A DNA stretch of 64,000 nucleotides from a virus (Duplodnaviria; Caudoviricetes): IMG/VR virus record IMGVR_UViG_3300009183_004565; one strand, given 5' to 3'. Positions within the stretch are counted from its first letter, which is position 1. Every line of letters starts with the position of its first letter. The notes beneath the pieces were generated by a model, which had not been told where the DNA came from, searched no databases, and worked only from the letters and a program-made list of their open reading frames with translations. Of the stretch, positions 6,140 through 22,384 are shown piece after piece. Made by a program: the position numbers and the translations under genes.

Positions 6140-6440
6140 ATTGTTGTAATTCCTTTAAAGCAAAGGCATGTTGGACGGGGTTTCGATACCCCCATCTCCA
6201 CCAGAAGCACATTATGGAGTTACCCGCTACACTACTAAAGGATCGCTACCTTTAGTAATATACAACGTGTGGTAGTGTGTTTCTGATGGGGATGAATTGG
6301 TTTCGACAGCGTGAGATAGTAGAGAAGGCAACACGGTAGGCGATCTCCGTAAAAGAAGCAAAACTCGTAACTGCAAACGATAGTTACTACGCAATGGCCG
6401 CTTGAGCCAAAGCCGGGGGTAGCGCCTTGTTAACCAATAG
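6140..6440 (+). ncRNA. ssrA: circularly permuted (two-piece) tmRNA
   Basis: T-arm and CATCTCC-A-CCA end at 6203; 5' end GGGGATG at 6288 gives a 7-bp acceptor stem with G3.U70; tag frame GCA AAC GAT AGT TAC TAC GCA ATG GCC GCT TGA = ANDSYYAMAA* at 6373-6405; outer ends approximate. Confidence 0.92.
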
Positions 6441-6444
6441 CTAG

Positions 6445-6469
6445 AATAGGACCTTCGGGTCCTATTTTT
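6445..6469 (+). terminator. intrinsic terminator after tmRNA
   Basis: AATAGGACC-TTCG-GGTCCTATT then T-tract. Confidence 0.85.
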
Positions 6470-6514
6470 GTTTTAGATGTCTAATAGATAAATAGCTAAA
6501 ACGGAGAAAACACC

Positions 6515-6871
6515 ATGGCACAATTGTTTATACTACCTAAATCTGTTCTGCAATACAATGAGCAATCAATTCGGGTCGATTTCTGGGAATGGGCCCAAAT
6601 GACATTATCCACGGCACAATTAGAAGAATTCGAACAGGAAATAAACAGTCATTATTCCTATATAGCGGGATTAATTGAATCCAATAGATATCAAAATGTT
6701 GATTTTGAAGTGTTGCCCAATGGCGACAATTGTGAAGCATTTGTTCTACCTGGTGCCCCTACTGATATTCCCGAAACAGATGCAGCCCGATTAAAATGGG
6801 AAGCAATTTTTGCAGCCGACCCAAATGTTACCTATAGCGGTTCCATGTTTACCTATGTTCGAGATGTCTGA
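6515..6871 (+). CDS. hypothetical protein
   Basis: TAAATA motif and GGAG upstream. Confidence 0.65.
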   Translation: MAQLFILPKSVLQYNEQSIRVDFWEWAQMTLSTAQLEEFEQEINSHYSYIAGLIESNRYQNVDFEVLPNGDNCEAFVLPGAPTDIPETDAARLKWEAIFAADPNVTYSGSMFTYVRDV

Positions 6872-6879
6872 TAGTCATT

Positions 6880-7821
6880 ATGGCTATTGGATTAGAACTA
6901 GTCACTAGATCAAATAATTCTAATATTGTTATAGAGTTACTATCAAATAATTTTATTCATGATTTTGTTGTCCAATTAAAACGAAATCATGAATTATATC
7001 CCATAAATTCCTTTAAAGAAATAATACGACCCAAATCTGTAGTACCTTGGAACCAAAAAACAATAGACCAGCTGACAGAAGTTTTTAAAAAAACAATTCG
7101 CGATCTCAACGCATTAGGAGTTTCTTTTCCAGTTACAGAAAATGAAATCATTATTGCCAATAATGCGTATACCAGGGATTTGCTTAATCGATTACACAGA
7201 CATTTTACAACAAGTCATAATAGTGGAAATACTTGGAAGTATGGATCAGACCTGAATTTTGTTGTTCCGGAATCTAAATCAGATGAATGGAAAAAATTAA
7301 TACATGATATAAATCATGCTGTACACGAAATAGAAGTTTATGTTATGACTGAACATATACAAACATTTAAATCGTTATATTTTGAGTATCAAGTAATATT
7401 TGACAGATCAAGCCCAAAGCGTAATGACATGATTCCAGTAGTCACTGGTTACGATCCAAATGGCGGTTATTTTCAAGAACTCAAACAAGAACATAAACAA
7501 TATTTTTCTGACGCACTCGAATACGATGTTTGGTTAACTTTGGATCAAGTGCAAGGAAAAAACTATCACAGATGTTATTTTGAAATGGATGATCCAAGAG
7601 AATGGGATATTGACACTCACGTGGTGTACAGTGGCAGTTTATCATTGACTGATCGTGCTGTAGCCAAGGATCCTCAAATAACCAAATGGTTAAAATCCTA
7701 CGGAATTGAACCTGGCCCGGAACATTGCGGTATGCCAATTGGTAATATTGTCGAAGGAAAAGAAGCAGTCCTGTCTCTAAGAGATCAATCAATTGTTGAT
7801 ATCATAATACACGAAAGTTAA
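6880..7821 (+). CDS. hypothetical protein
   Basis: 313-aa ORF, no motif recognised. Confidence 0.7.
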   Translation: MAIGLELVTRSNNSNIVIELLSNNFIHDFVVQLKRNHELYPINSFKEIIRPKSVVPWNQKTIDQLTEVFKKTIRDLNALGVSFPVTENEIIIANNAYTRDLLNRLHRHFTTSHNSGNTWKYGSDLNFVVPESKSDEWKKLIHDINHAVHEIEVYVMTEHIQTFKSLYFEYQVIFDRSSPKRNDMIPVVTGYDPNGGYFQELKQEHKQYFSDALEYDVWLTLDQVQGKNYHRCYFEMDDPREWDIDTHVVYSGSLSLTDRAVAKDPQITKWLKSYGIEPGPEHCGMPIGNIVEGKEAVLSLRDQSIVDIIIHES

Positions 7822-7863
7822 ACATCTCTTGCTCTAAATTGAGCTTTTTGCTATAATAAGAGC

Positions 7864-8271
7864 ATGAAAACTCAATTTCAATCTCCCAATCCTGGTTGTA
7901 AAGTTGCTATTACTTTTGAGCTCAATAGCTATGTGCTGGGGCACGAAGGACCTGTTGCTACAACTGTAACAGGCATTGTTGATTCAGCAACTCGATTCAC
8001 CCCACCTAACTTTGTTAGAATCGTGACAGATTTTGATAGCCCTGTGCGTATTCGAGAAATTCCACTAGACCGTATAACTGAAATTAAATACGCAGACGGA
8101 GGAGTTGGTGAGAAGGTACTTGCAAAAGATGCCCCAAAGACCTGGGTGGTAGAAGGTAGCAAGGGATCCAAATATACTGTGGTACGATCTAAGAATATTT
8201 GGACTTGCACTTGCCCAGGTTTCCAATTTCGTAAATCTTGTCGACATGTGACGGAGTTAAAAGACTTATGA
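7864..8271 (+). CDS. SWIM zinc-finger protein
   Basis: C-terminal WTCTCPGFQFRKSCRHV (CxC..CxH). Confidence 0.75.
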   Translation: MKTQFQSPNPGCKVAITFELNSYVLGHEGPVATTVTGIVDSATRFTPPNFVRIVTDFDSPVRIREIPLDRITEIKYADGGVGEKVLAKDAPKTWVVEGSKGSKYTVVRSKNIWTCTCPGFQFRKSCRHVTELKDL

Positions 8272-8289
8272 TATTACAAAGGATCAATT

Positions 8290-8523
8290 ATGGAACGCAA
8301 GGCATTAAAAGAATTATTGTATGGCGGTATTGAAGAATTGTTACAGAACAGTAGATATTATTATCAGAGTTCTATAGGCCCAGGGTATAGTCATTTTACC
8401 GACGAAGGTAAGCGAAATCTCAATGAGTTTCTAGATATAGTTGCACATGAAATGAAGAAATGTCGTGATGCAGAAGATGAGCAACGCAGTCGAGAACTAG
8501 TTATAAAGGAACTTACACAATGA
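8290..8523 (+). CDS. hypothetical protein
   Basis: AAGGA RBS. Confidence 0.6.
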   Translation: MERKALKELLYGGIEELLQNSRYYYQSSIGPGYSHFTDEGKRNLNEFLDIVAHEMKKCRDAEDEQRSRELVIKELTQ

Positions 8524-8670
8524 CACTAGACGAGGCAGTCGTACAATTGCATAATGTAGCAAGAACATTGGAACAAGAAATTGGTCGCGGGCAACTAAGC
8601 GATGACATTAGAGACTGTGCGGACCGATTGCACAGGTTAGCACGATACGATTACATTAAGAAAGAAGAAG

Positions 8671-8931
8671 ATGGAATACAATAGAGACAATATTGCAGAC
8701 ATGCTGCGCGAAAGTGTATGCGAAGTTACCTTTACTAAAATTAATGGCGAATCAAGAACCATGCCTTGTACACTAAAAGCAGATCTAGTGCCTCCGGTCA
8801 ATGTCAAAGAATTGCGAGAAGAAAGAACTCGTAAGCCAAACCCAGATAATTTAAGTGTATGGTGCACGGATAAGAACGAATGGCGTAGTTTTAAAATTGC
8901 CAATGTTACTCGGGTAGAACGAATTGGATAA
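8671..8931 (+). CDS. WYL_2/DUF2693-like SH3-fold phage protein
   Basis: VTFTKINGESRTMPCTL...WRSF pattern typical of T4-like phage proteins. Confidence 0.65.
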   Translation: MEYNRDNIADMLRESVCEVTFTKINGESRTMPCTLKADLVPPVNVKELREERTRKPNPDNLSVWCTDKNEWRSFKIANVTRVERIG

Positions 8932-9103
8932 GACTTGGACTATAACACTAGAAGAAGATCCTGAGACTGGAGAACTAATTCTACCATTCCCGCCTGACCT
9001 ATTAGCGGAATCCGGATGGAAAGAAGGTGACACTCTCGAGTGGATTGATCGCGGTGACGGCAGTTGGGGTTTGGAAAAACAAAAAGACAAAACGGACAAA
9101 TAA
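8924..9103 (+). CDS. AbrB/MazE-like small DNA-binding protein
   Basis: TTG start; EEDPETGELILPFPPDLLAESGWKEGDTLEW; absent from the ORF track. Confidence 0.65.
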   Translation: MDKTWTITLEEDPETGELILPFPPDLLAESGWKEGDTLEWIDRGDGSWGLEKQKDKTDK

Positions 9104-9181
9104 ATTGTTGCTATTTCCTAAACGTTCGCATATAATAGATAAATGCTGTAGTACAGCATATCTATTTAGGAGATATTAAAG

Positions 9182-9451
9182 ATGTTTGATTTAAACACAA
9201 AACAAGGTAAGTTGTTCCGCGCTCTCGTCCTTGAAGGAGAGTCACTAACTGCTAGTCAGATTCAGAAGCGTTTTGGCATCAAGAATCCACGTGCTACCGT
9301 TAGCGAAATTCGTTACGCAGGTTTTCCTGTGTATGCTAACACCCGTAAAGCAGGCAACGGCGTTCGTGTAACTGAATACCGTCATGGCAAGGCAAGCCGC
9401 GCACTAGTCGCAGCAGGTTACAAAGCAATTGCAATGGGTCTAGTTGACTAA
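9182..9451 (+). CDS. winged-helix/HTH phage protein
   Basis: LTASQIQKRFGIKNPRATVSEIR; AGGAG RBS; terminator follows. Confidence 0.65.
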   Translation: MFDLNTKQGKLFRALVLEGESLTASQIQKRFGIKNPRATVSEIRYAGFPVYANTRKAGNGVRVTEYRHGKASRALVAAGYKAIAMGLVD

Positions 9452-9471
9452 TTCTAGTTCAACTTTGTAGG

Positions 9472-9498
9472 AAAGGCAGCGCAATGCTGCCTTTTTTT
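9472..9498 (+). terminator. intrinsic terminator
   Basis: AAAGGCAGC-GCAAT-GCTGCCTTT plus T-tract. Confidence 0.85.
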
Positions 9499-9517
9499 AC
9501 GGCTAATAAATATCTGT

Positions 9518-9871
9518 ATGCATAGACGTATCTTTAACCTCGAGCGGGATCTACGCAGTACTTGGTGGTTAGTGGAAAAAGTACAAGCCAAAGATGCTTA
9601 CGCTCAACATTTATATGCCACCTTGTGCAACAACGAGTTTGCACCCCGGGACACTTGGGCTATCCTACAAAATATTAAATGGAGTTGTACCTGGCGCTAT
9701 GCTGGTGGTATTATAGCCGACATACGTGGCTCCGGCGACTACTTAGATTGGTACTGTTCGGGTATGTTTAATGATGGAATAATTGACTGGGAAATGGCCG
9801 AAGAAGGTGTTGTGTACCCAGAAATTGAAGAGGACATCAATAACATAGGTTGGTTAGTTATAACCAAATAA
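9518..9871 (+). CDS. hypothetical protein (apparently leaderless)
   Basis: TAAATA (9507-9512) + 5 nt + ATG, no SD. Confidence 0.7.
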   Translation: MHRRIFNLERDLRSTWWLVEKVQAKDAYAQHLYATLCNNEFAPRDTWAILQNIKWSCTWRYAGGIIADIRGSGDYLDWYCSGMFNDGIIDWEMAEEGVVYPEIEEDINNIGWLVITK

Positions 9872-9898
9872 AAAAAGAGCCCCTAAGGGCTCTTTCTT
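9871..9898. terminator. bidirectional terminator
   Basis: A6-GAGCCC-CTAA-GGGCTC-TTTCTT between convergent genes. Confidence 0.8.
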
Positions 9899-9938
9899 AT
9901 ATGTAGTAATTGTTCGATCCATGCAATGAATCGATTTA

Positions 9939-10586
9939 TTACTTTCCCAATAGGCTGTCAACCTTTGCTTCAACGATATTTAAACGTACTTCAACAGCAT
10001 CTAATGCTGGATCAGCGGGCATAACAACTGCGTCAGCAACTTGTTGCATTACTTCAGGAGCAACAGCGTCAACACCGGTTGCGGTAGCGATAACACCAGA
10101 AACTGCAGCAACAATTTGCTCAACTACTTCTGGTGCTGGAGCTGGAGCATCAGCAACTGCTTGTACAATGGCTTCTGTTAAGGCTACTGGATCCATGACA
10201 ATCTCTGGATCGGCTGTAACAATAGCAGCAACAGCAGCAGCAACTACGTCAGACACCTGAGTATCTACTACTGATTCTGCGGCGTGTTGTTCAGCAATAA
10301 CATCGGCAACAATAGCAGCGGCTTCTGGAACTTCGGCGCTTGGTGATAGTGCAACTAGATCTTCAACTGCTACAGGTGCAGTCGCAGCCGGTGCAGCAAT
10401 AATTTCTTCAATATGTTTTTGAGTTTTTTCAGTAATTAATTGATCAACTTGAACTTCAACTACGGATAATCTTGCATCTAGTTCTTCAACGCTTGTGGCA
10501 TTGTTGGTGTTAACCGCGGTTCCGGTTAATGTTGCTAATTTAGCTTCGACAGCAACCAATCTTGCAGCCAGGTCTTCTAATCTCAT
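9939..10586 (-). CDS. Ala/Val/Glu/Pro-rich protein with three RLxxVExxxxxL helical repeats
   Basis: AAGGAG RBS; Pho-box-like element upstream. Confidence 0.8.
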   Translation of the reverse strand: MRLEDLAARLVAVEAKLATLTGTAVNTNNATSVEELDARLSVVEVQVDQLITEKTQKHIEEIIAAPAATAPVAVEDLVALSPSAEVPEAAAIVADVIAEQHAAESVVDTQVSDVVAAAVAAIVTADPEIVMDPVALTEAIVQAVADAPAPAPEVVEQIVAAVSGVIATATGVDAVAPEVMQQVADAVVMPADPALDAVEVRLNIVEAKVDSLLGK

Positions 10587-10640
10587 GAATAGCTCCTTTT
10601 AAGTTTTTTTGAGTTGGTGTACCATTTTGGAACACGCATG

Positions 10641-10675
10641 TACTTATCATTTGGGTCATTACATTATTGTTACAA
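10641..10675 (-). promoter_or_regulatory. Pho-box-like promoter (minus strand)
   Basis: TGTAAC/TGTAAT direct repeats with 11-bp period (10674-10658), TAAGTA starting 17 nt after the start of the second repeat. Confidence 0.65.
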
Positions 10676-10717
10676 ACTGCAAACTACGCCTAAATATTTT
10701 TTTACCAGATCCCTAAT

Positions 10718-10752
10718 TTGTAACACGCTTGTAATACTAGTGTGCTTAAATA
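10718..10752 (+). promoter_or_regulatory. Pho-box-like promoter of pstS
   Basis: TTGTAAC-ACGC-TTGTAAT (11-bp period), TAAATA at 10747. Confidence 0.7.
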
Positions 10753-10786
10753 TTCACTGTAACGAAATATTTCAAAGGAGAAATTA

Positions 10787-11812
10787 ATGAAGAAGTTTGT
10801 GACATTAGCAGCACTAGTATTTTCTACAGTAGTATCAGCAGCTGATTTAACAGGCGCTGGTGCAACTTTTCCCTACCCAATTTATGCCAAATGGGCAGAA
10901 GCATATAAAGCAGCAACAGGTATAGGACTCAATTATCAATCCATCGGTTCAGGTGGTGGTATTCGTCAAATCAAAGCCAAGACAGTGGACTTTGGTGCCA
11001 GTGATATGCCATTGAAAGTAGAGGAATTAGACAAAGAAGGCTTAATGCAATTCCCCGCAATCATTGGTGGTGTTGTTCCGGTATTCAACCTTGATGGTGT
11101 ACAACCTGGTGAATTGAAACTGACCAGTGATGTAATCGCTAATATTCATCTAGGTAAAATTACCAAATGGAATGATCGAGCAATTGCTGAATTGAATCCT
11201 GGTGTCACACTACCAGCAATCAATATCACTGTTGTGCATCGTGCAGATGGCTCAGGCACAACATTCATTTGGACAAACTATCTGAGCAAAGTAAACGCCG
11301 ACTTTAAGAATACTGTAGGCGAAGGCTCTGCTGTGAAATGGCCAACTGGTGTAGGCGGCAAAGGTAACGAAGGTGTTGCGGCCAACGTTCAACGTGTCAA
11401 AGGCGCTTTTGGTTACGTGGAATATGCCTACGCCAAGAAAAACAAAATTGCGTATGCACAATTGAAAAATCGTGATGGTAACTTTGTACAACCAAGTGAT
11501 GATACATTTAAAGCAGCCGCAGCAGGTGCTGATTGGAACAATGCTCCAGGAATGTATTTGTTACTGACAAACCAAACTGGCAAAGATTCATGGCCAGCAA
11601 CTGGTGCCAGTTTTATCATAATGCACAAGCAACAAGCAGATGCTTTAACTGGTCGTGCTATTCTAAAATTCTTTGATTGGTCGTATAAAAACGGCGCCAA
11701 GATGAGTGAAGATTTGGAATATGTACACATGCCTCAGTCAGTTATCAAGTTAGTTCAAGATAACTGGAAAAAAGAACTCAAAGGACCAGACGGTCAATCA
11801 ATTTGGAAATAA
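10787..11812 (+). CDS. pstS: phosphate ABC transporter substrate-binding protein
   Basis: Signal peptide; TGAGATFPYP, YQSIGSGGG, DFGASD, HRADGSGTT motifs. Confidence 0.97.
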   Translation: MKKFVTLAALVFSTVVSAADLTGAGATFPYPIYAKWAEAYKAATGIGLNYQSIGSGGGIRQIKAKTVDFGASDMPLKVEELDKEGLMQFPAIIGGVVPVFNLDGVQPGELKLTSDVIANIHLGKITKWNDRAIAELNPGVTLPAINITVVHRADGSGTTFIWTNYLSKVNADFKNTVGEGSAVKWPTGVGGKGNEGVAANVQRVKGAFGYVEYAYAKKNKIAYAQLKNRDGNFVQPSDDTFKAAAAGADWNNAPGMYLLLTNQTGKDSWPATGASFIIMHKQQADALTGRAILKFFDWSYKNGAKMSEDLEYVHMPQSVIKLVQDNWKKELKGPDGQSIWK

Positions 11813-11875
11813 ATCATTTGACATACTCTAACACTTTTAATATAGTGTTAGAGTATCAACATAAAGGAAAATGTA

Positions 11876-13291
11876 ATGAAACAATTTAAAATACTAACAG
11901 CGGCTCTGGCAATAGCTATGATGTTTGCTGGCGCAGCACAAGCAGATGAGTACACTGACACGTTAGATATTCTTTTACAAAAAGGAATTCTCACCAAGCA
12001 AGAACACGCTGCCAAAATTGAAGCACATAAAGATCGCTTGGAAAACAAAGAATTCCAATCATCTAGAATTGACAAAGATGTTAAAGACAACAACAACTAT
12101 CGTTTGAGCAAAGTGAATGATGGCGCTGTAATGGAAAATGGTCTTGGGATCAAATCAAAAGATGGCAATACCACAGCACAGTTTACTGGTCGTATTCATA
12201 TGGACTATAGAAGTTATACTCAAACATTTAGTTCTGGTCAAAGCACTGATCCATATCAAGACACACTAGAAGTTCGTCGTGGACGTTTTGGTGTACGTGG
12301 ACAGATTGCCAAAGACTTCAAATATCTGCTACTAGCAAACTTTGGTAACGATGCTGGCGCAAGTTCAACTACATCAACAATTGATGAGTTTTGGTTTAAC
12401 TATGCCGCTATCACAGAAGCACAACTACAAGTTGGTACATTCAAGATGCCTTTCAGTCTTGAACAGTTGACCAGTTCCAACAACATTGACTTTATGGAAC
12501 GTAGCCTGATTGGTCAGACCGAAGGCGAATTTATTCCTGCCAAAGAAACTGGTGTGATGCTGCATGGTATTCCTAGAACAGGATTCACCTATGCGTTGGC
12601 ACTAAGTCGTGGTCGTGCTAACAAGAGTACTACAGTTGATGGTGTAGATGTTATTGGTCGTGTGACTACAAACGTTGCAGAAGTAATTCAGAACAAAGAC
12701 TTTGTAGCACACTTAGGTGCAGCATACAGCACAGGCAATGTCAAAACAGGTGTTGCTCCCGCTAGTGGTCGTACTGAAGGACGTCAACAAAGTGCATGGT
12801 TCACAGGTTCATCTGCAATGAGTGGTGATACTGCACGAACACGCCAGGGCATTGAAGCAGCATTTGCCTGGAAGGGTTTGAAAGTACAGGGTGAGCAATT
12901 CGTCTTTAACTACGATCCTGCTACAGGAACAGACAAAGAGATCAAGGGTCACTATGTTCAAGCAATTTATAACATCACAGGTGAGAGTCACAACTACAAA
13001 GATGGCGTATTTGGTTGGATCAAACCTAACTCTGCTTTCACAAGTGGTGGCAGAGGCGCATGGCAAGTTGGCGTAAGAGCCAGTGAGTTTAATGCCGAAG
13101 ATATTACAGTTGCAACTGGTAAAGCAAATCTAGCAACGTCATTGACTTACGGTATTACTTGGTTTCTGAATGACAATGTACGCATAATGGCAAACTATGT
13201 TGACACCAAATTCAACAAACCAGTTGGTACATCTGGTGCCCGTGTAGATGGTGAACAGGCAGTTATGCTCAGAGGTCAGATCAGTTTCTAA
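11876..13291 (+). CDS. phosphate-selective outer-membrane porin (OprO/OprP family)
   Basis: Signal peptide, TLDILLQKGILT N-terminus, RRGRFGVRG, FSLEQLTSSNNIDFMER, C-terminal Phe; directly after pstS. Confidence 0.88.
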   Translation: MKQFKILTAALAIAMMFAGAAQADEYTDTLDILLQKGILTKQEHAAKIEAHKDRLENKEFQSSRIDKDVKDNNNYRLSKVNDGAVMENGLGIKSKDGNTTAQFTGRIHMDYRSYTQTFSSGQSTDPYQDTLEVRRGRFGVRGQIAKDFKYLLLANFGNDAGASSTTSTIDEFWFNYAAITEAQLQVGTFKMPFSLEQLTSSNNIDFMERSLIGQTEGEFIPAKETGVMLHGIPRTGFTYALALSRGRANKSTTVDGVDVIGRVTTNVAEVIQNKDFVAHLGAAYSTGNVKTGVAPASGRTEGRQQSAWFTGSSAMSGDTARTRQGIEAAFAWKGLKVQGEQFVFNYDPATGTDKEIKGHYVQAIYNITGESHNYKDGVFGWIKPNSAFTSGGRGAWQVGVRASEFNAEDITVATGKANLATSLTYGITWFLNDNVRIMANYVDTKFNKPVGTSGARVDGEQAVMLRGQISF

Positions 13292-13310
13292 TTTCAAAAT
13301 TAGAACAAAT

Positions 13311-13335
13311 AAAAGGCACTTAGGTGCCTTTTTTT
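13311..13335 (+). terminator. intrinsic terminator
   Basis: AAAAGGCAC-TTAG-GTGCCTTTT plus T-tract. Confidence 0.85.
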
Positions 13336-13341
13336 ACGACT

Positions 13342-13376
13342 TTGTAATGGATTTGTAATCTTGCAAACCTTAAATA
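13342..13376 (+). promoter_or_regulatory. Pho-box-like promoter of the plcP-like gene
   Basis: TTGTAAT-GGAT-TTGTAAT (11-bp period), TAAATA at 13371. Confidence 0.7.
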
Positions 13377-13381
13377 ATTAT

Positions 13382-14227
13382 ATGAGCAAGACCTATCGTA
13401 GTATTTTTATCAGTGATATACACCTTGGTACTAAAGACTGTAAGGCTGTTGAGCTAAACAATTTTTTAAAAAATAATACCTGTAACACGTTATATCTTGT
13501 TGGTGATATTATAGATGCATGGAAAATAAAACAGAACAAGTGGCGTTGGAAACAAAGTCATACAAATGTTATACGCCGCATACTGGGTCATGCCAAAAGA
13601 GATACTCGTATTATATATGTACTAGGTAATCACGATGAGTTTTTAAGACCGTTCCTGCAATACAATTTAAATTTTGGAATGGTAGAGTTACATAACCAAT
13701 ACGAGCATATAGGTGCCGACGGTAAACATTATCTAGTCACACACGGTGACCTGTTTGATGGTATTACTAGACTGGCACCTTGGCTTAGTATATTAGGAGA
13801 CAAAGCATATGATTTCATACTTACTCTCAATTCTAGATTCAATTGGCTCCGTCATAGACTTGGCTTTGGTTATTGGAGTCTTAGCCTTTATCTTAAACAA
13901 CGGGTTAAACGAGCTTTAGACTTTATATTCCAGTTTGAAAGAAATCTAGCCGCATACTGTAAAAAGCGTGGATTTGATGGTGTCATATGCGGACACATAC
14001 ATCACGCAGAAATCAAAGAAATAGATGGTGTAGTATACATGAACGACGGTGACTGGGTTGAGTCAATGACAGCATTAGTAGAACATCATAACGGTCGTTG
14101 GGAAATCATAACTTGGACGCAGGAGAAGGATGATGTGGTTGATGATATTGATGGCAGTACACATAAACGATCCACGGGACGTTCCAGCAAAAATGACCTT
14201 GGAGTTCCCGGATCAACAGACGTGTGA
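13382..14227 (+). CDS. plcP: PlcP-like phospholipase C / LpxH-like metallophosphoesterase
   Basis: FISDIHLG, LVGDIID, GNHDE, HGD, GHIHH, NDGDWVES; paired with a GT4 gene as in bacterial plcP-agt loci; ATG 13382 preferred. Confidence 0.75.
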   Translation: MSKTYRSIFISDIHLGTKDCKAVELNNFLKNNTCNTLYLVGDIIDAWKIKQNKWRWKQSHTNVIRRILGHAKRDTRIIYVLGNHDEFLRPFLQYNLNFGMVELHNQYEHIGADGKHYLVTHGDLFDGITRLAPWLSILGDKAYDFILTLNSRFNWLRHRLGFGYWSLSLYLKQRVKRALDFIFQFERNLAAYCKKRGFDGVICGHIHHAEIKEIDGVVYMNDGDWVESMTALVEHHNGRWEIITWTQEKDDVVDDIDGSTHKRSTGRSSKNDLGVPGSTDV

Positions 14228-14287
14228 ACAAAGTGCAAAGTCGATGACGTATTGGGTAAAATTTGAATCATTCAAGATTGATGTAAA

Positions 14288-15301
14288 ATGCGTAAAAAAA
14301 TATTAGTAATAACAGATAACACACCGGATCAGATTAATGGCGTGGTTACAACTTTTAAGAACCTTGAGACCATGGCTGTTCTGGACGGTTATAGTATTGT
14401 ATACCTTACTCCCCGGGAGTTCGTACATTTTGATTGCCCAGGCTACCCTGAAGTTAAATTTGCCTGGCCGTGGGGTCTGGGTAAAAAGATTAAGGAGATA
14501 TCTCCGGATTATATACACATCGCCACAGAAGGTCCTCTTGGTTTGTGTGCTAGACTTTATCTTGACCTCCGGGGCTATAGGTATAATACTAGTTACCATA
14601 CTAAGTTCCCTGAATTTCTAAAAAAGATATACAATGTTCCAGAATGTATTACCTGGGGTTACCTACGTTGGTTCCATAAACACTCAGGCATAGTGTTAAC
14701 TAACACTAATACCATGGTCAATGAATTACGCAGACATGGATTCGAAGGTGGAATCATTCCATGGACTCGCGGAGTCAATAGAGAAGAATTGCAGCCCACA
14801 CAAGCATGGCCTCATCCTAATCCAAGGCCCTTGATATTATACGTGGGCCGTGTTAGTCAAGAAAAAGACATTGATGTAGTATGTCGACTAATTGATACAT
14901 ATGACGTGGTTGTTGTTGGTGACGGACCTGACAGAAAAAGGCTAGAGCAAGAACATCCAGGGTGTCAATTTGTGGGATATAAAACTGGAAAAGAATTAGC
15001 AGACTGGTATGCAAGAGCAGATGTACTGGCTTTTCCTAGTAGAGTTGATACATTTGGTATAGTAATGATTGAAGCAATGAGTCTAGGTACTCCAGTAGCA
15101 GCATACCTAGTACCTGGACCGCAAGATATTATTCGTCAAGGTGTTTCGGGATACATGAGCGAACGATTAAGAGACGCCGTGGACTTATGCTTACATATTC
15201 CTAGAGCCAGAGTTGTAGCAGACAGTGAGCGTTGGACGTGGGAATTATGTTGGGTTATATTTCGTAACAATCTAGTAGATTTAAATCGGGTGCAACAATA
15301 G
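14288..15301 (+). CDS. GT4 glycosyltransferase, Agt-like (glycosyl-diacylglycerol synthase)
   Basis: QINGVVTT, HIATEGPLG, TSYHTKFPE, YVGRVSQEK, FPSRVDTFG..EA motifs. Confidence 0.85.
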   Translation: MRKKILVITDNTPDQINGVVTTFKNLETMAVLDGYSIVYLTPREFVHFDCPGYPEVKFAWPWGLGKKIKEISPDYIHIATEGPLGLCARLYLDLRGYRYNTSYHTKFPEFLKKIYNVPECITWGYLRWFHKHSGIVLTNTNTMVNELRRHGFEGGIIPWTRGVNREELQPTQAWPHPNPRPLILYVGRVSQEKDIDVVCRLIDTYDVVVVGDGPDRKRLEQEHPGCQFVGYKTGKELADWYARADVLAFPSRVDTFGIVMIEAMSLGTPVAAYLVPGPQDIIRQGVSGYMSERLRDAVDLCLHIPRARVVADSERWTWELCWVIFRNNLVDLNRVQQ

Positions 15302-15397
15302 AGCACCGCTGGAACTCGTAACCAGATTTCCCATTGGGGATTTTCATGTATAAATATTAGTATCAAAGGTAAAGAGCGCCTGCCCTTTTATTCAATT

Positions 15398-15649
15398 ATG
15401 TGGGAATGTTTAGTAACATTTTTTTCTATATTTTTTCTCGACATTGTATACACCTACTATCTTAGATGTGTAGCAAATGACAATGTATTAGGTGCGAGTT
15501 TTTGGAGTGTGGCCTGCTACATATTAGGAAGTGTTGCAGTTATTAGCTACACAACAAATCACTGGTTAGTTGTTCCTGCAATTGCTGGCGCATTTTGCGG
15601 AACTTATGTTGGAATGAAGATTAAAAAGCGCCAATCAAAAGACGAGTAA
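15398..15649 (+). CDS. small multi-pass membrane protein
   Basis: Three hydrophobic segments. Confidence 0.65.
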   Translation: MWECLVTFFSIFFLDIVYTYYLRCVANDNVLGASFWSVACYILGSVAVISYTTNHWLVVPAIAGAFCGTYVGMKIKKRQSKDE

Positions 15650-15656
15650 ACACCCC

Positions 15657-16301
15657 ATGAAACCTACCATTGCTATGTTCCTGTACCAGCCCCGAGCGTC
15701 TGTGCAATGTGGAAATGCAATGATGGAGGTTCTTTCTGATTACTACAAATTCAAAATTTTTACCAAGCAGGATATGGAAAAAGATTTCTTTGATGGAGTA
15801 GATATCGTGGCTTTTCCTGGCGGCGATGGGGATAGTGAAAGCTATCATTTTTTAATGAAGCATCACGAAAAACGTATACAAAACTTCGTACAAGACGGTG
15901 GTCGTTATTTAGGTATTTGTATGGGTGCTTATTGGGCCGGAAGCCATTACTTTGATATGCTAGACGGTGTAGATGCTGTACAGTATATTACACAACCCAA
16001 TACAGACACTCGCCGACCTCATGCCAAAGCCTGTCCTGTCAATTGGGACGGAGAAGATATGCGAATGTATTTTTACGATGGCTGTGCTTTAGCAGGTGAC
16101 GAGAGCAAGTTTGACACCATTGCTCGCTATGCAAACGGTGACCCAATGGCCATATTTCAAGACCGTATTGGAATCATGGGCTGTCACCCCGAAAGTGAAC
16201 AATGGTGGTATGAAATACATAACTATCTAAAACCGCATTATCATAACGGATATCATCATCAATTGTTGCTCGAATTTGTTGACCAATTAATGCAACAGTA
16301 G
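15657..16301 (+). CDS. class I glutamine amidotransferase-like (BPL-N type) protein
   Basis: FPGGDG, YLGICMGAY, HPE triad pattern. Confidence 0.75.
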   Translation: MKPTIAMFLYQPRASVQCGNAMMEVLSDYYKFKIFTKQDMEKDFFDGVDIVAFPGGDGDSESYHFLMKHHEKRIQNFVQDGGRYLGICMGAYWAGSHYFDMLDGVDAVQYITQPNTDTRRPHAKACPVNWDGEDMRMYFYDGCALAGDESKFDTIARYANGDPMAIFQDRIGIMGCHPESEQWWYEIHNYLKPHYHNGYHHQLLLEFVDQLMQQ

Positions 16302-16329
16302 TATAATAATTTTTTAGAAGGAGAAGTCA

Positions 16330-16767
16330 ATGAGTAATCTCAAAGGTAGCAAAACAGCTGAATGTCTCAAAGAAGCATTTGCCGGAGAATCAATGGCAAA
16401 TCGTCGTTACTTGTATTTTGCAAACGGTTGCGATATTGCAGGTGAAAATGATCTAGCAGCATTGTTCCGTTCAACCGCCGAAGGTGAAACAGGACATGCA
16501 CATGGTCATATGGAGTATTTGATTGAAGGTGGTGCAGGCGAACCCGGTACAGGCTTACCAGGTAAGACACCACTTGAAATGTTACAAGCAGCAATTCATG
16601 GCGAAACACACGAGTACACAGACATGTATCCGGGTATGGCACGTACTGCCCGTGACGAAGGATTTGATGAAGTTGCTGATTGGTTTGAAACATTGGCCAA
16701 AGCAGAACGCAGTCACGCCAATCGTTATCAAAAAGCACTAGAGAAGTACACTGCTGATAATGCCTAA
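16330..16767 (+). CDS. rbr: rubrerythrin (short, no rubredoxin domain)
   Basis: [44 protein letters not shown]. Confidence 0.93.
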
Positions 16768-16801
16768 CATGGTGTGGCTAAAGTTTTAAACAGTTAAACA
16801 C

Positions 16802-16822
16802 AAGCCCCCATTGGGGGCTTTT
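16802..16822 (+). terminator. intrinsic terminator
   Basis: AAGCCCCC-ATT-GGGGGCTT plus T-tract. Confidence 0.8.
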
Positions 16823-16836
16823 TCGACGGAGATTAA

Positions 16837-17070
16837 ATGGAAACACAACTAAGAACAACAGTTAAAACCATAATATGGAGATTAATTTGTATTTTGGGTT
16901 TAGCTTACTGGACTGGTTTAGGCGGATCAATATTAATAAATATTTTTTTCATGACACTTTATTACATACATGAAAGAATTTGGTTGAGAATCAGTTGGGG
17001 TCGCTCCAGCCATTCATTAGATCAAAATAATGATTTTACGCATACTGACGCAGCGCAACATCGTGTATAG
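16837..17070 (+). CDS. DUF2061-like small membrane protein
   Basis: ETQLRTTVKTIIWRL...YYIHERIWLRISWG. Confidence 0.7.
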   Translation: METQLRTTVKTIIWRLICILGLAYWTGLGGSILINIFFMTLYYIHERIWLRISWGRSSHSLDQNNDFTHTDAAQHRV

Positions 17071-17117
17071 TAATCATACATACTAATGCAGTATGTCACT
17101 TTTTAAGGAGAAATAAA

Positions 17118-17192
17118 ATGGCATGGATTACACCAGCAGCACAAGATATGCGTTTTGGTTTTGAAATCACAATGTATATTGCAAATAGATAA
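17118..17192 (+). CDS. pqqA: PQQ precursor peptide PqqA
   Basis: MAWITPAAQDMRFGFEITMYIANR (24 aa) with E-x3-Y core; AAGGAG RBS and own terminator; absent from the ORF track. Confidence 0.92.
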   Translation: MAWITPAAQDMRFGFEITMYIANR

Positions 17193-17193
17193 T

Positions 17194-17218
17194 AAAAAAG
17201 GCTTCGGCCTTTTTTTTT
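17194..17218 (+). terminator. intrinsic terminator after pqqA
   Basis: AAAAAAGGC-TTCG-GCCTTTTTT plus T-tract. Confidence 0.85.
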
Positions 17219-17362
17219 ATAATTTTTTAATCAAATTGATAAATAATTATGTTGACTAGTCCTTAGTCATCTTGTATAATTCAATTAACAGAATTAGTCT
17301 TTCTGTTTTGCACTAAAAACAAATCCACACAAAACCATTTTATATCAAGGAGAACAATTTAA

Positions 17363-18607
17363 ATGCGTTTAATTCCATCATTAGTAGTGGCACTCGCTGC
17401 GGCCTGTGTTACCTCTGTTGCATTGGCCGATAGACCTTTGCAACCAATCGTAGAAGTATCAAAGAAAGGTACAAAGTGTAAGCAAGATCCCAACTGTTTT
17501 AATCGGTTGAGTCCTGCTATCAAGCCTGTTGCCAAGGCCAAACCAGGCGAGTTAATTAGAGTCCAAACAAGGGATGCGGTGGATGCCGAACTAGACATCA
17601 ATGCAAAACCCAAAGATGTTACCGCAATTGACCTAAGTTTAGTACACCCAATGACTGGTCCAATTTATATCGAAGGCGCAAAGCGCGGTGATGTATTGGC
17701 AGTTAAGATTGTAGACGTTGAGCCAGAAAAACACGGCTGGACCACAATCATTCCAGGATTCAACTTCCTGAGTGACATGTTCCCAGAGCCGTACATTGCC
17801 AACTGGCGTTTGAATCGCCTTGAGGCAGTGAGCGAGCAAATTCCTGGTGTACGTATTCCTATGCGAGCATTTACAGGTATCATTGGTGTTATGCCTGGTG
17901 AACCAGAAATTGATAAATGGTTGGCTCGTGAAACTCAATTGGCAGATGCCGGCGGCGCAGCATTAAAACCATTACCAAGTGGAGCTCACCCTGCTAACAT
18001 TTGCGGACCTAACGGTTCACACAAAGACAAGTGCTTGAGATCTGTACCACCACGTGAAAACGGCGGTAACATGGATGTCAAACAGATGGTTGTCGGAACT
18101 ACTTTACTCTTTCCATGTTTTGTAGATGGATGCGGACTGTACATCGGTGACGTACACTATGCACAAGGCGATGGCGAAGTAGCAGGTACTGCAATCGAAA
18201 TGAATGGTGTTGTTACTGTTGAAACCAGTATTCGTAAGGGTGGTGCTGCTACACTTAAATCGATTCAATTCGAAGGCGGTTCGCAGTTGAAGGCATTGGA
18301 ACCAGATGCTTTCCATGCTACCATTGGATTCCCACTTAAGAATGCCGGCGAAATCCCACCACACTTGACTTACTTAGACAGCAAGAAAATTGGTCCTCTT
18401 ACCAATCTGTCACAAGACTTGACTCAAGCAGCACGTAGCAGTTTGATTCAAATGATTGATTGGCTACAACAAACCAAAGGTCTAACCAAAGAACAGGCCT
18501 ATGTTGTAACCAGCGTTGCTTGCGATCTGCGTATCAGCAATGTAGTTGACGTACCAAACTATGCTGTGACCACGATCTGCCCGTTGGAAATTTTTGAATC
18601 CAAGTAA
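17363..18607 (+). CDS. acetamidase/formamidase family protein with signal peptide
   Basis: HPMTGPIYIEGAKRGD, PPRENGGNMD, GDVHYAQGDGEV, DLRISNVVDVPN; N-terminal signal-like sequence. Confidence 0.9.
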   Translation: MRLIPSLVVALAAACVTSVALADRPLQPIVEVSKKGTKCKQDPNCFNRLSPAIKPVAKAKPGELIRVQTRDAVDAELDINAKPKDVTAIDLSLVHPMTGPIYIEGAKRGDVLAVKIVDVEPEKHGWTTIIPGFNFLSDMFPEPYIANWRLNRLEAVSEQIPGVRIPMRAFTGIIGVMPGEPEIDKWLARETQLADAGGAALKPLPSGAHPANICGPNGSHKDKCLRSVPPRENGGNMDVKQMVVGTTLLFPCFVDGCGLYIGDVHYAQGDGEVAGTAIEMNGVVTVETSIRKGGAATLKSIQFEGGSQLKALEPDAFHATIGFPLKNAGEIPPHLTYLDSKKIGPLTNLSQDLTQAARSSLIQMIDWLQQTKGLTKEQAYVVTSVACDLRISNVVDVPNYAVTTICPLEIFESK

Positions 18608-18662
18608 TTGATTGTCAACCACAAGGGAGGAAAATTTCCTCCTTTATTTTGTAGGAAAAATA

Positions 18663-19235
18663 ATGAAACTCACAAAATTGTTTATTGTTACCATGTTGGT
18701 AGCAAGTACTTCAGTCTCTGCACATACACCTTACGGACAATGGGATGTTTTTCGTAGTAGATTTTTACAGATAGTTACTTCTAAAAGTGACCTGCCCGGA
18801 GACACTATTGGCGAAGAATGGGCGTCTGATCTAAGAAGTAAACTGCCAGAGTCAAGAGCTTTGGTAAGTCGTGCCGGCAGTATGGAACATTTGGCCAGTT
18901 TGATTAAAACTGATCAAGCAAAGTTGGCAATCATTTCTTATGCCGATGCCAAAGCTATACAATCAGGCAAGCCGCCTTTTGCAGAATTTAATCCAATACC
19001 GTTACAAGTACTAGTTGACAACGGAACCCACTTACTAGTGGCAAGAGATAACTTGCCTTTATATCACGGTTATCTAATAACATCTGCTTTGATGCAAGAA
19101 CCAAATTGGTTACGTGTTAAAATTCCCTCTAATGGTAAATTTGGAATTCCATTACATCCTGGAGCAAAAGCAACTGCCGATGGAGAAAAGCTAGTTGCGC
19201 CTGTGGCCAAAGAGCAAACCGTACATAATCATTAA
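18663..19235 (+). CDS. exported protein, possibly periplasmic-binding-protein (TAXI-like) fold
   Basis: Signal peptide ending SVSA; C-terminal IPLHPGAK reminiscent of TAXI proteins. Confidence 0.55.
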   Translation: MKLTKLFIVTMLVASTSVSAHTPYGQWDVFRSRFLQIVTSKSDLPGDTIGEEWASDLRSKLPESRALVSRAGSMEHLASLIKTDQAKLAIISYADAKAIQSGKPPFAEFNPIPLQVLVDNGTHLLVARDNLPLYHGYLITSALMQEPNWLRVKIPSNGKFGIPLHPGAKATADGEKLVAPVAKEQTVHNH

Positions 19236-19237
19236 AA

Positions 19238-20449
19238 ATGTATAAACTAGAGCAAAACGACAAAATTGGCTATTACACCGTTGGCACAAAAAAGTTTTAT
19301 GCCAAGGTTGAAGCATTAATCGAAGCCACCAAAGTTAATCAATTTCCGCAGTGGCATTTTAATACTGATGTTTATGGTTCTATAAAATGGGATCATGATC
19401 CCCAAGTTTCATTGCGTGAACTATACAGGCTTAGAGCAGTACAATTACGAGAAAAATACGACTGGATCAGAATTGAAGCTTCCGGTGGTGGTGACAGTAC
19501 CACTGCACTATTGAGCTTTTTGAATAATGGCATTCATATAGACGAGGTAGTGTTTAGATATCCAAAGACAGGAGAAAAAAATGTACACGGAGATCCGTTT
19601 AATACCAAATGTGAAAATACATTGAGTGAATGGGATTTTGCAGCAAAACCTTTACTAAACTGGATCTCCACTCATCATCCTCGAGTAAAAATTACAGTGC
19701 ATGATTTCACTGACAGCATGGTCAATGCTTCATACGAGGAAGATTGGGTATTTAGATCAAAGGATTATTTTTTACCTAGTCATCCTTTTAAACACGATCC
19801 TGTTGGGTATGCAGATCACCGCAAAGATGCTGATGCGGGTAAAAAGATTGCAGTATTGTACGGAATAGACAAACCAAGAGTATGCGTTAAGGATAATAAA
19901 TGGTATGTTTATTTTATGGATCTACAGGCCAATCATTCAAATTCTGTAGTTAACGAGTACAATAACATTACCAACGAATATTTTTATTGGACTCCAGATT
20001 TACCAGAAATTGTACACAAACAAGCACACATGATTAAAAATTGGTTCATGTTGCCACAAAATCAATCGTTGCAACATCTAGTAAAGTGGCCCAATAACAG
20101 TATCGCAGCTCGTACTACATATGAACAAGTTGTTAAACCTATCTTGTATCCAGATTATGATCCAGCTACATTTCAAACCATAAAGCCAACAAATAGTTTT
20201 TACAATGAGATGGATTATTGGTTTTATGTAAATTTCAAAGAAACTCGAGCATATCAAATTTGGAAAGCAGGACTCAAATTCCTAGTAGATAATATTGACC
20301 AGAAATATATGTATAAAGAAATGGGAGAGCCAATGGGATTTGTGGGTTTTCTAAGTCCATTCTATTATCTAGGACCAGCTACTTATGTTGATACCGGGGT
20401 AAACAATTATGCTAGATTTGATCAACCACCAACAGAAAATATAACTTAA
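19238..20449 (+). CDS. PP-loop (adenine nucleotide alpha-hydrolase-like) protein
   Basis: SGGGDS motif, GIDKP motif. Confidence 0.6.
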   Translation: MYKLEQNDKIGYYTVGTKKFYAKVEALIEATKVNQFPQWHFNTDVYGSIKWDHDPQVSLRELYRLRAVQLREKYDWIRIEASGGGDSTTALLSFLNNGIHIDEVVFRYPKTGEKNVHGDPFNTKCENTLSEWDFAAKPLLNWISTHHPRVKITVHDFTDSMVNASYEEDWVFRSKDYFLPSHPFKHDPVGYADHRKDADAGKKIAVLYGIDKPRVCVKDNKWYVYFMDLQANHSNSVVNEYNNITNEYFYWTPDLPEIVHKQAHMIKNWFMLPQNQSLQHLVKWPNNSIAARTTYEQVVKPILYPDYDPATFQTIKPTNSFYNEMDYWFYVNFKETRAYQIWKAGLKFLVDNIDQKYMYKEMGEPMGFVGFLSPFYYLGPATYVDTGVNNYARFDQPPTENIT

Positions 20450-20493
20450 ATAACATTATTAGATAATAGTTTGTTATATAAGGAGTTCATAGC

Positions 20494-20721
20494 ATGACTA
20501 CAGATTGGATACGAAAACACGTTAAACCTAGTCTTGTAGCTAAGTATGAGCAAGAAATGACCAAGCTTCGTGGAGAACCAAGTAGTAGTAGACACATAGT
20601 AGAAAATATCAAAAAGTTAAACGAGGAATCAGACAAAATTGAAACTGATGAAGAGCGGCATGCTCGAGAATTAGCCGAGGACGAAGAAGATAACAGACGT
20701 TTTCATGAACGAAAAAAATAG
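20494..20721 (+). CDS. charged hypothetical protein
   Basis: AAGGAG RBS. Confidence 0.6.
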   Translation: MTTDWIRKHVKPSLVAKYEQEMTKLRGEPSSSRHIVENIKKLNEESDKIETDEERHARELAEDEEDNRRFHERKK

Positions 20722-20722
20722 C

Positions 20723-21382
20723 ATGAATGCCATTGTTGTAGGAGGGGGATCTAAGTTTGGCCAATTTGTTGTTGATAGTTTAAGGTCTTTAGATTATCAG
20801 GTTTACGTTCTGAGTCATCAAGATTACAACACTGGCGATCCTACACATTTAAGTGCTGATTTTAAAAATACCAATAGTGTTAAATCTCAATTTCAAAAAA
20901 TACTAGAACAAATTGACACGTTAGATTTATTTTTATACGTGTCAAATTTTGACTTTGGACCCGGAAAACCGGAACACTTTGGGTTATTAACTTCGACAGT
21001 TGAAAAAATGTGGTTTGACACAACTAGAGTAAACGTCGTACTACCGCATGAATTATCTTTACTGGCCTTACGAAAAACTCACAATGATAGTAAAATTGTC
21101 TTTATGGCATCAGGCTTGGCTTATGAATTTGAAAGAACTGACTACACTGAAATGGCTGCTTATGCAGGATCAAAAGCAGCACTAAATCATTTGATGACAG
21201 CATTATCTGCGCACAACAAAGAAATCATATGTGCTCTAAGTCCACACTTTCCGGCCGATGAAGAATTAAAAATTAAAGAATATCAATTTGCGTTTAATCG
21301 ATTGGTTTCATTGACTCGTGCCGATAAAGGTAAAATTATAAAACTATATCTTGAAAGCCCGCATAGGCTACAAAATCATTAA
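20723..21382 (+). CDS. short-chain dehydrogenase/reductase
   Basis: VVGGGSKFG Rossmann motif; YAGSK (YxxxK-like). Confidence 0.8.
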   Translation: MNAIVVGGGSKFGQFVVDSLRSLDYQVYVLSHQDYNTGDPTHLSADFKNTNSVKSQFQKILEQIDTLDLFLYVSNFDFGPGKPEHFGLLTSTVEKMWFDTTRVNVVLPHELSLLALRKTHNDSKIVFMASGLAYEFERTDYTEMAAYAGSKAALNHLMTALSAHNKEIICALSPHFPADEELKIKEYQFAFNRLVSLTRADKGKIIKLYLESPHRLQNH

Positions 21383-21425
21383 CAAACTAGCAACATTGTT
21401 GCTAAAGATGCAACAAAATAAATAG

Positions 21426-21454
21426 TTGACCATTAATCAGTATTTTGCTATACT
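21426..21454 (+). promoter_or_regulatory. sigma70-type promoter for the RNA cluster
   Basis: TTGACC-17-TATACT with no downstream ORF/RBS. Confidence 0.7.
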
Positions 21455-21536
21455 ATTGAAACTGTGTAAAACAACACAGCCCGTGCAGTAACAAAAACGT
21501 TCTATAACAATTTAGAAGTTTAATACAAAAAGACAA

Positions 21537-21607
21537 CGCATCAGGACCTAGTCCTTCTCTGCGACACAACACAAACGGCACACCAGGACTTGGCTCCTTC
21601 TCTGTGC
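21537..21607 (+). ncRNA. tandem duplicated hairpin motif (unknown RNA element)
   Basis: CGCA-TCAGGACCTAGTCCTTCTC-TGCG and GCACA-CCAGGACTTGGCTCCTTCTC-TGTGC. Confidence 0.45.
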
Positions 21608-21622
21608 AGTTTAAAAATTTTT

Positions 21623-21706
21623 GCCTGGGTGGTGTAATGGTAGCCACGCTGGTCTTAGAAGCCAGTGTCGAAAGACGTGCGAGTTCGAGTCTCGCCCCAG
21701 GCACCA
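21623..21706 (+). tRNA. tRNA-Leu(UAG)
   Basis: Cloverleaf, CTGGT-CT TAG AA-GCCAG, variable arm, encoded CCA. Confidence 0.95.
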
Positions 21707-21780
21707 TATTAAAACACATTTCGAACGGTGAAAGTCCGTCCCAAAGATTTATCTAGGATAGTGTGTTTCAATATGGTAGA

Positions 21781-22153: not shown

Positions 22154-22216
22154 AAACACATAACGAAACGGCAGGCGTTAAACAGGATTACAATCGCCTA
22201 GGTAATCAATAATTAT

Positions 22217-22291
22217 GCACCGTTCGTCTATCGGTTAGGACACCCGCCTTTCACGCAGGTAAGAGGAGTTCGATTCTCCTACGGTGTACCA
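22217..22291 (+). tRNA. tRNA-Glu(UUC)
   Basis: Cloverleaf, loop CT TTC AC, one mismatch in the anticodon stem, CCA. Confidence 0.92.
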
Positions 22292-22300
22292 AGTTTTAAA

Positions 22301-22375: not shown

Positions 22376-22384
22376 ATTTCCCAA

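Follow-up and report, generated by a model that had tools for sequence, protein, structure and literature searches.

Why should two different stable RNAs of one phage be followed, directly at their CCA ends, by hairpins that look alike? The question is raised by a DNA stretch of 64,000 nucleotides (nt) from a virus of the Caudoviricetes, IMG/VR record IMGVR_UViG_3300009183_004565 (the window, by which we mean the whole of this stretch), in which a circularly permuted transfer-messenger RNA (tmRNA) and a tRNA-Leu(TAG) each run into such a hairpin. An earlier note, made from the letters of the window, took the hairpins to be a reusable RNA module at CCA ends or a small mobile element, and suggested that they could explain how the tmRNA became permuted. 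We find that the two hairpins belong to a large and so far uncatalogued RNA hairpin family of uncultured T4-like water phages. Well-paired copies number 305 in 147 IMG/VR loci of T4-type phages, nearly all within tRNA arrays and on the tRNA strand; their stems covary and enclose the CCA of the upstream RNA, which bears out the reusable module at CCA ends. The note had named as its refutation homologues with neither an association with tRNA or tmRNA 3' ends nor covariation, and the homologues recovered here show both.

Read directly, the stem of the tmRNA spacer has 13 base pairs (bp), 6202-6214 pairing with 6273-6285, including G6207.U6280 and U6212.G6275. Its 3' arm ends at 6285 and does not reach 6287; A6286 and U6287 separate the stem from G1 at 6288, and a 2x2 loop links the stem to the acceptor stem on which it rests. 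The stem of the tRNA-Leu trailer has 18 bp, 21703-21720 pairing with 21760-21777, with an A.C mismatch (position 9) and a single U.G pair, and its first four bases, from 21703 on, are A73-C-C-A of the tRNA (21623-21706). Both spacers fold as had been described, with fold z values of -5.2 for the tmRNA spacer and -2.6 for the trailer. The 11-mer TAGTGTGTTTC is found in the window exactly twice, at these two hairpins, although one 11-mer common to two sites in 64 kb is unremarkable by itself and one-mismatch matches are at chance level. A covariance model built from 110 hairpins of other phages, with the window excluded (R1), gave only two significant matches when the whole window was searched with filters off, and these are the same two hairpins: 21703-21777 at 57.7 bits over the full model (E 1.7e-12) and 6197-6290, the tmRNA spacer, at 24.7 bits (E 4e-4), the + strand outscoring the - strand in both. 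Since R1, built without the window, gives exactly these two sites, their kinship is more than chance. The trailer 21703-21777 has the features that define the R1 family, namely a 19-bp stem, consensus arms, the tRNA strand and an NCCA start, and begins at A73 of tRNA-Leu. The supposed third copy, AAACACATA at 22153, did not hold up; it has no complementary partner and no R1 match, and chance alone would be expected to yield a match to the 12-mer core with one mismatch.

How large is the family? Three IMG/VR loci were retrieved by the 3' end of the window tRNA-Leu, and all have the same stem after the CCA. L001 and L002 have another insert inside the stem and tRNA-Glu after it; L003 has two copies, one around about 190 nt and the other ahead of the next tRNA. 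Each stem arm, used as an exact pattern, matched more than 118 viral contigs, many with several copies. The fetched sample comprised 215 loci (1.93 Mb) with 2086 tRNA genes called by ARAGORN, and copies were gathered via the exact arm patterns and then by a regular expression with at most one mismatch; of the 319 candidate hairpins, 305 have tRNAs on one strand at a distance of up to 1 kb. The comparison with Rfam that the note had proposed showed that no Rfam family covers the hairpin. Rfam 15 has no match over 21300-22500 at E up to 10, gives only the tmRNA and weak terminator-region matches over 6000-6600, and, on fifteen hairpin-rich loci, reaches gathering scores for nothing but tRNA, tmRNA and a single group I intron. 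Full-text literature searches found no published description of the hairpin family, and the Melnitz paper makes no mention of the hairpin.

The stem of the family is 19-20 bp long, about two helical turns, with the consensus 5' arm ACCAUAUUGAAACACAUU and 3' arm AGUGUGUUUCAAUAUGGU, and contains a conserved box, GAARCACAUU, with a recurrent A.C mismatch at its base. In alignment A1, 96.2% of the cells are paired and changes on both sides occur in 15 of the 19 pairs, which none of 500 shuffles reached. At position 8, free in the detection pattern, 99% of the copies have U-A, A-U, G-C or C-G, and at position 19, likewise free, all six standard pair types occur. The share of G.U at positions 12-15 and 17 is 29%, 6%, 8%, 13% and 74%, whereas A.C there is at most 1%. 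A.C is what G.U becomes on the opposite strand. When orientation was read from T:G versus A:C mismatches alone, it agreed with the tRNA strand 220 times and disagreed 22 times, and the mismatch asymmetry points to selection at the RNA level. These sequences show a family of co-oriented, covarying RNA hairpins that share the upstream CCA, frame conserved but exchangeable inserts and are also present in the excised tmRNA spacer.

The CCA is encoded by 97% of the tRNAs in the hairpin loci. The first base of the hairpin is A73 of an upstream ARAGORN-called tRNA in 158 of the 305 copies, and many of the remaining hairpins sit after a non-tRNA helix that likewise ends in NCCA. A test blind to the stem sequence, which asked for 15 or more of 16 pairs from the discriminator base on, found such a stem at 175 of 1979 CCA-ending tRNAs, against 2 in a shuffled-arm control. 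In 38 of these 175 stems the sequence is another one, fully compensated (for example in L208, L104, L113 and L055), which suggests further sub-families of the CCA-anchored architecture beyond the consensus. Because these 38 use quite different sequences, the constant feature is the pairing of the CCA with a downstream UGG, and the consensus marks a dominant sub-family. Downstream, the next tRNA begins 3-22 nt past the stem in about 80 copies, and in 42 the GGU of the stem forms its first three bases.

The tRNAs found upstream of the hairpin are mainly tRNA-Glu (40), tRNA-Lys (38), tRNA-Leu (29) and tRNA-Gln (12), well above their share of the 2086 tRNAs, while tRNA-Met, Arg, Ser and Gly are almost never found there; all these counts are uncorrected for kinship. 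Some cassettes are preceded by T-arm-like short hairpins directly before ACCA (L192 at about 3630-3675, L085 and L092; for example CCGAG-UUCGAGU-CUCGG-ACCA). Such units resemble minihelices and are not called as tRNAs by ARAGORN.

What the stems enclose is variable and structured, 30-100 nt in length. Clustered by sequence, the 305 inserts form 196 groups, and within a group the insert is kept across phages and behind different tRNAs; the inserts thus appear to be a payload under selection. L011 and L083 carry the tRNA-Leu cassette of the window behind tRNA-Lys, at about 93% identity; position 8 has changed in a compensatory way, and the homology between the three begins at ACCA and ends at UGGU. 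Of the 202 cassette pairs that are at least 80% identical, 113 lie in flanks that are unrelated on either side. Around the cassettes, direct repeats of 2-6 nt are no commoner than in permuted pairings, which gives no sign of target-site duplications. Two complete genomes, of 400 kb and 329 kb, have three hits each, lying within about 10 kb and about 2 kb, and a third complete genome has no hit. The mobility proposed in the note is thus borne out in one respect, as identical cassettes do occur in unrelated flanks with homology that stops at ACCA and UGGU, and fails in another, as target-site duplications are lacking and the copies stay in the stable-RNA cluster. It looks like shuffling of cassettes by recombination and not like transposition. 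No antisense target of the window insert was found elsewhere in the window. An insert motif, GAAAGUCCG, resembles the conserved P4 region of ribonuclease (RNase) P RNA; a kinship with RNase P RNA was rejected, as the proposed partner does not pair and Rfam has no match.

Does the tmRNA spacer belong to the same family? Rfam places a circularly permuted tmRNA at 6142-6469 (RF04321, 141.7 bits; RF01850, 156.7 bits), and in the alignment 6204-6287 is an insertion flanked by the acceptor piece with its CCA and by the coding piece with its 5' G, which makes it the intervening segment. The spacer is the consensus without UAUU/AAUA, its arms being CCA-GAAGCACAUU and AGUGUGUUUC-UG, and only the upper 11 bp match R1. 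A search with the pattern CUCCACCA followed by RAAGCAYA, which leaves the 3' arm and UGAU outside the pattern, returned 120 loci. At least 71 phage two-piece tmRNAs close their spacer with the upper half of the hairpin stem: the complementary 3' arm is present, and in 62 of these 71 UGAU and the tmRNA 5' end come next. The first stem pair of these tmRNAs (hairpin position 9) is A-U, G-C or A.C, the fourth (position 12) is G-C or G.U, and the ninth (position 17) is C-G, U.G or U-A, so that the A.C, G.U and U.G irregularities at positions 9, 12 and 17 are common to the tmRNA stems and the hairpin family. Run on 74 tmRNA loci, a larger search space, R1 brought only a handful of spacers near 24 bits; the tmRNA link therefore rests mainly on the R1 match in the window and on the stem comparison of the 71 tmRNAs. 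The tmRNA spacer stem, a variant that the 71 tmRNAs share, is best regarded as a related sub-type and not a canonical member of the family.

Three permuted tmRNAs in hairpin-carrying genomes were found by Rfam with the spacer sequence unused; two of them (L346 and L347) are family-like and the third (L345) is not. The spacer of L345, at about 1540-1680 on the - strand, is closed by a different stem, AGAGGAGAUU/AAUCUCCUC, which has a Shine-Dalgarno sequence in it and a small open reading frame (ORF) behind it. The tmRNA spacer is thus a slot that often, though not always, holds such a stem. Because related permuted tmRNAs carry other spacers, of which L345 is an example, it behaves like a slot filled later; nothing supports the explanation of the permuted tmRNA by the hairpin, and the variety of spacers makes it less likely. 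The window spacer is about 94% identical to that of L011 over 80 nt. Its insert, 6215-6272, is 91% identical to L011:14041-14098, with compensatory changes in an inner hairpin, and was found elsewhere in L011 alone; the acceptor stems of the two tmRNAs differ (GGGGAUG versus GGGCCAG). In this pair a spacer assumed to be discarded is better conserved than part of the tmRNA itself.

The main question then is what such hairpins do. We consider it moderately probable that they are stem-closed small-RNA cassettes in the stable-RNA operons of aquatic T4-type phages, released by the RNA-maturing enzymes of the host. The base of the stem uses the discriminator base and CCA of the preceding RNA, and its far end lies a few bases short of the next one. 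With the two-piece tmRNA, the upper stem GAAGCACAUU/AGUGUGUUUC is stacked on the acceptor stem, and the excised spacer is one more cassette slot. An endonuclease of RNase E type or RNase III type may cut at or just after the CCA, possibly at the base of the GAARCACAUU box, and RNase P would cut at the 5' end of the next RNA. In this way the host enzymes that mature the neighbours would release the hairpin as a discrete, exonuclease-resistant small RNA with the insert as its payload. The constant stem could serve at once as folding insulator, processing frame and homology handle for the exchange of cassettes between slots and between phages.

Which enzymes might act? RNase III acts on near-continuous double-stranded RNA of about 20 bp or more, a length that the paired positions, 1-19 or 1-20, reach, and the uniform helix of about 20 bp with A.C at the base of the box would fit an enzyme of this type. 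RNase E in E. coli cuts 0-3 nt past the CCA in AU-rich sequence (PMC5291269), and by analogy the UAUU after the CCA may fit this rule, though the stretch is paired here. Partner genes were sought in five large hairpin-carrying T4-type contigs (177-400 kb, three estimated complete), all five of which encode a T4-type major capsid protein. RNase III (PF14622, PF00636), Ro60 (PF05731), RtcB (PF01139) and Rnl2-type RNA ligase (PF09414) had no match in these five contigs, and host enzymes are expected for this reason. Circularisation by a phage ligase has no support.

Several points weigh against cassettes released by the host. The conservation of the stem is inflated by the way the copies were collected, through exact arms and a regular expression with at most one mismatch, and the copy counts are not phylogenetically independent. 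Of 1585 pairs of neighbouring tRNAs, 883 have a gap below 20 nt and only 136 a hairpin; because most adjacent junctions have none, the hairpin is not required for tRNA maturation as such. The cleavage site, the released RNA and the enzyme are ones that we infer. The inclusion of the CCA and 18 near-invariant nt exceed the needs of a pure scaffold, which hints at a sequence-specific reader.

A further-reaching version, which we put forward only tentatively, would make the CCA-anchored stem the universal frame and recombination handle of an RNA-cassette platform. Hundreds of unrelated small RNAs, for example decoys or mimics directed against host defence or translation factors, would be captured, exchanged and expressed from host-excised slots including the tmRNA spacer, and a dedicated protein would read the stem.

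Alternatively, the hairpin could be purely a site of processing or punctuation, in which a helix of about 20 bp would be cut by an RNase III-type enzyme to separate stable RNAs and define their ends, the insert being filler. The reading of the hairpin as a processing module, already made in the earlier note, is plausible, and it draws on the uniform stem length, on the A.C mismatch that recurs at the base of the conserved box, and on the tmRNA, where the 13-bp stem, the 2x2 loop and the 7-bp acceptor stem add up to a comparable continuous helix; the stems that flank rRNAs and the RNase III sites of T7 offer an analogy. It stays a conjecture, since the majority of tRNA junctions in these arrays go without a hairpin. 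Filler would also not be kept within types and covary as the inserts do, and the phage contigs tested lack an RNase III of their own; RNase III cleavage of the stem is a prediction. A payload is preferred over a pure processing signal because of the junctions without a hairpin, because the inserts are under selection and because the tmRNA spacer is by definition excised; processing and nothing else is accordingly an unlikely account.

Slightly less likely still is a ribonucleoprotein scaffold, in which the invariant stem would bind a specific phage or host protein, as in the case of Ro60 and Y RNA, and the inserts would be decoys, guides or tRNA mimics, for example anti-defence RNAs. Such a scaffold could account for a stem sequence kept far beyond the needs of pairing, including the U.G at position 17, for inserts that are extremely diverse and in some cases have T-arm-like hairpins, and for the near absence of the element from bacterial genomes (2 true hits, both in phage-like contigs of metagenome-assembled genomes, MAGs). 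However, the 38 CCA-anchored stems with other sequences do not share the invariant stem, part of the apparent conservation is due to sampling bias, and no partner protein was found; unlike in the Y RNA/Ro60 system, the TROVE domain (PF05731) is absent from the five T4-type contigs, a comparison made on the phage side only.

It is improbable that the hairpin is at the DNA level a mobile element or recombination site, resembling a miniature inverted-repeat transposable element (MITE) or a single-stranded DNA hairpin of attC or repetitive extragenic palindromic (REP) kind, which inserts at tRNA 3' ends and whose RNA folding is incidental. Terminal inverted repeats are present, identical cassettes occur with sharp boundaries in unrelated flanks, and single-stranded DNA hairpins also tolerate G:T mismatches. 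Yet the mismatch asymmetry follows the transcribed tRNA strand, the inserts carry covarying RNA helices of their own, and no transposase or integrase was linked to the copies in a search that was not exhaustive. Nor do the copies behave like MITE-like transposons, as there are no flanking target-site duplications and no genome-wide dispersal, the copies of both complete genomes with hits staying inside the stable-RNA cluster. Finally, the idea that the likeness of the two window hairpins is coincidental, for which the single shared 11-mer would leave room, is refuted by the independent R1 model, by hundreds of homologues in the same context and by the 71 tmRNAs, and can be set aside.

Phage tRNA operons are known to hold structured hairpins, as spacers or for processing, as well as small stable RNAs; what is new is that one constant frame is anchored on the CCA, that its inserts are hypervariable and that the tmRNA spacer makes use of it as well. 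Keiler, Shapiro and Williams in 2000 and Sharkady and Williams in 2004 reportedly dealt with the intervening segments of two-piece tmRNAs. Two-piece (permuted) tmRNA genes with an intervening segment are described in PMC9004378. The window has such a segment, which runs from the CCA to G1 and is removed during maturation, but differs in that it is closed by a stem common to tRNA-linked hairpins and holds a conserved structured insert; no paper describing a tmRNA segment with the stem of a tRNA hairpin was found in the literature searched.

RNase III stems flank rRNAs, and RNase III sites are found in the early region of T7. Like these, the hairpin is a helix of about 20 bp astride a stable-RNA boundary in a polycistronic precursor; unlike these, its stem encloses an insert and not a mature RNA, includes the CCA of its neighbour and is near-invariant in sequence, and its cleavage is predicted. 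The RNase E sites after the CCA in E. coli share with the hairpin, where it follows a tRNA, an AU-rich stretch (here UAUU) directly past the CCA and a hairpin after the tRNA, and (A/G)N↓AU fits one base past the CCA, but there the AU-rich cut site lies ahead of a terminator, whereas here it is paired in the stem and UAUU is absent from the tmRNA variant. Species 1 and 2 of T4 (rnaC and rnaD) are likewise small structured RNAs beside tRNA genes, with tRNA-like 3' features and, in rnaC, a T-arm-like hairpin; when folded and read they showed no common closing stem and no sequence likeness, and they are single-copy, not a repeated frame. The PeSL promoter-terminator cassettes of T4-like phages are short conserved repeats for which modular shuffling by recombination was proposed (PMC2839356, PMC4122927). 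They resemble our family in this respect, but consist of a small stem-loop with sigma-70 hexamers and flank ORFs in hyperplastic regions, whereas the family has a 19-bp stem and a large insert and lies in RNA operons. No promoter-like site was found within or abutting 21703-21777, so this hairpin does not qualify as a PeSL.

Phage tRNA arrays are usually annotated as tRNAs with empty spacers in between; here a conserved, covarying RNA family takes up a sizeable share of the spacers, and the same frame is used in the part of the two-piece tmRNA that is thought to be discarded. If the inserts are functional small RNAs, they would form a large unexplored pool of phage non-coding RNAs and a natural counterpart of engineered tRNA-flanked RNA expression arrays. 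The consensus and the covariance model offer a handle for annotating such elements, and the finding makes the cutting of polycistronic stable-RNA precursors and of permuted tmRNAs directly testable.

As to carriers outside IMG/VR, a consensus-like copy compared by blastn with 50,697 GenBank records of cultured phages gave chance-level matches only, and the 4-kb region around the window cassette matched nothing but tRNAs. In bacterial genomes (185,579 species, 596 Gb) the two-arm pattern had 8 hits, six of which are chance palindromes free of tRNAs. The two true hits are on tRNA-packed MAG contigs, L337 (1478 nt, binned as Planktophila), which has 9 tRNAs in 1.5 kb, and L338 (3540 nt, binned as Sediminibacterium), which has tRNA-Glu, the hairpin and tRNA-Leu(TAG). 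Both look like phage tRNA arrays mis-binned with bacteria and are at most weak hints at a host. A group I intron match (RF00028, 53.4 bits, just above the gathering score) is at L030:13185-13378 on the - strand, within a hairpin-rich tRNA array, and may interrupt a tRNA gene.

Table 1. Stable RNAs, hairpin cassettes and neighbouring sites in the window
Feature	Position	Strand	Details and source
tmRNA acceptor piece (tRNA-like 3' half)	6142..6203	+	ends A-C-C-A 6200-6203; Rfam RF04321 and RF01850 alignments
tmRNA intervening segment, family-variant cassette	6204..6287	+	stem 6202-6214/6273-6285, structured insert 6215-6272
tmRNA coding piece	6288..6469	+	GGGGAUG acceptor strand, tag ANDSYYAMAA, terminator hairpin 6443-6468; Rfam alignments, terminator scan
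Promoter-like site (TTGACC, 17 nt, TG-TATACT), 5' of RNA operon	21426..21454	+	consensus scan only
tRNA-Leu(TAG), CCA encoded	21623..21706	+	ARAGORN; Rfam tRNA 56.1 bits
Canonical hairpin cassette	21703..21777	+	5' arm 21703-21720, insert 21721-21759, 3' arm 21760-21777 (UGGU end)
Further non-coding RNAs, cassette to tRNA-Glu	21778..22216	+	without ORF support, without Rfam match
GAAACACATAAC, 'degenerate copy' of the earlier note, non-member	22153..22164	+	no partner arm, no R1 match, chance-level match
tRNA-Glu(TTC) and tRNA-Gly(TCC), next tRNAs in same operon	22217..22375	+	ARAGORN

The terminator and consensus scan of the window showed no + strand terminator between the promoter-like site at 21426 and position 22385, and the cassette 21703-21777 is predicted to be co-transcribed with the tRNAs. 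A second near-consensus sigma-70-like promoter lies at 22385-22413, and together with the site at 21426-21454 it brackets the operon from tRNA-Leu to tRNA-Gly (TTGACC, 17 nt, TATACT or TATAAT).

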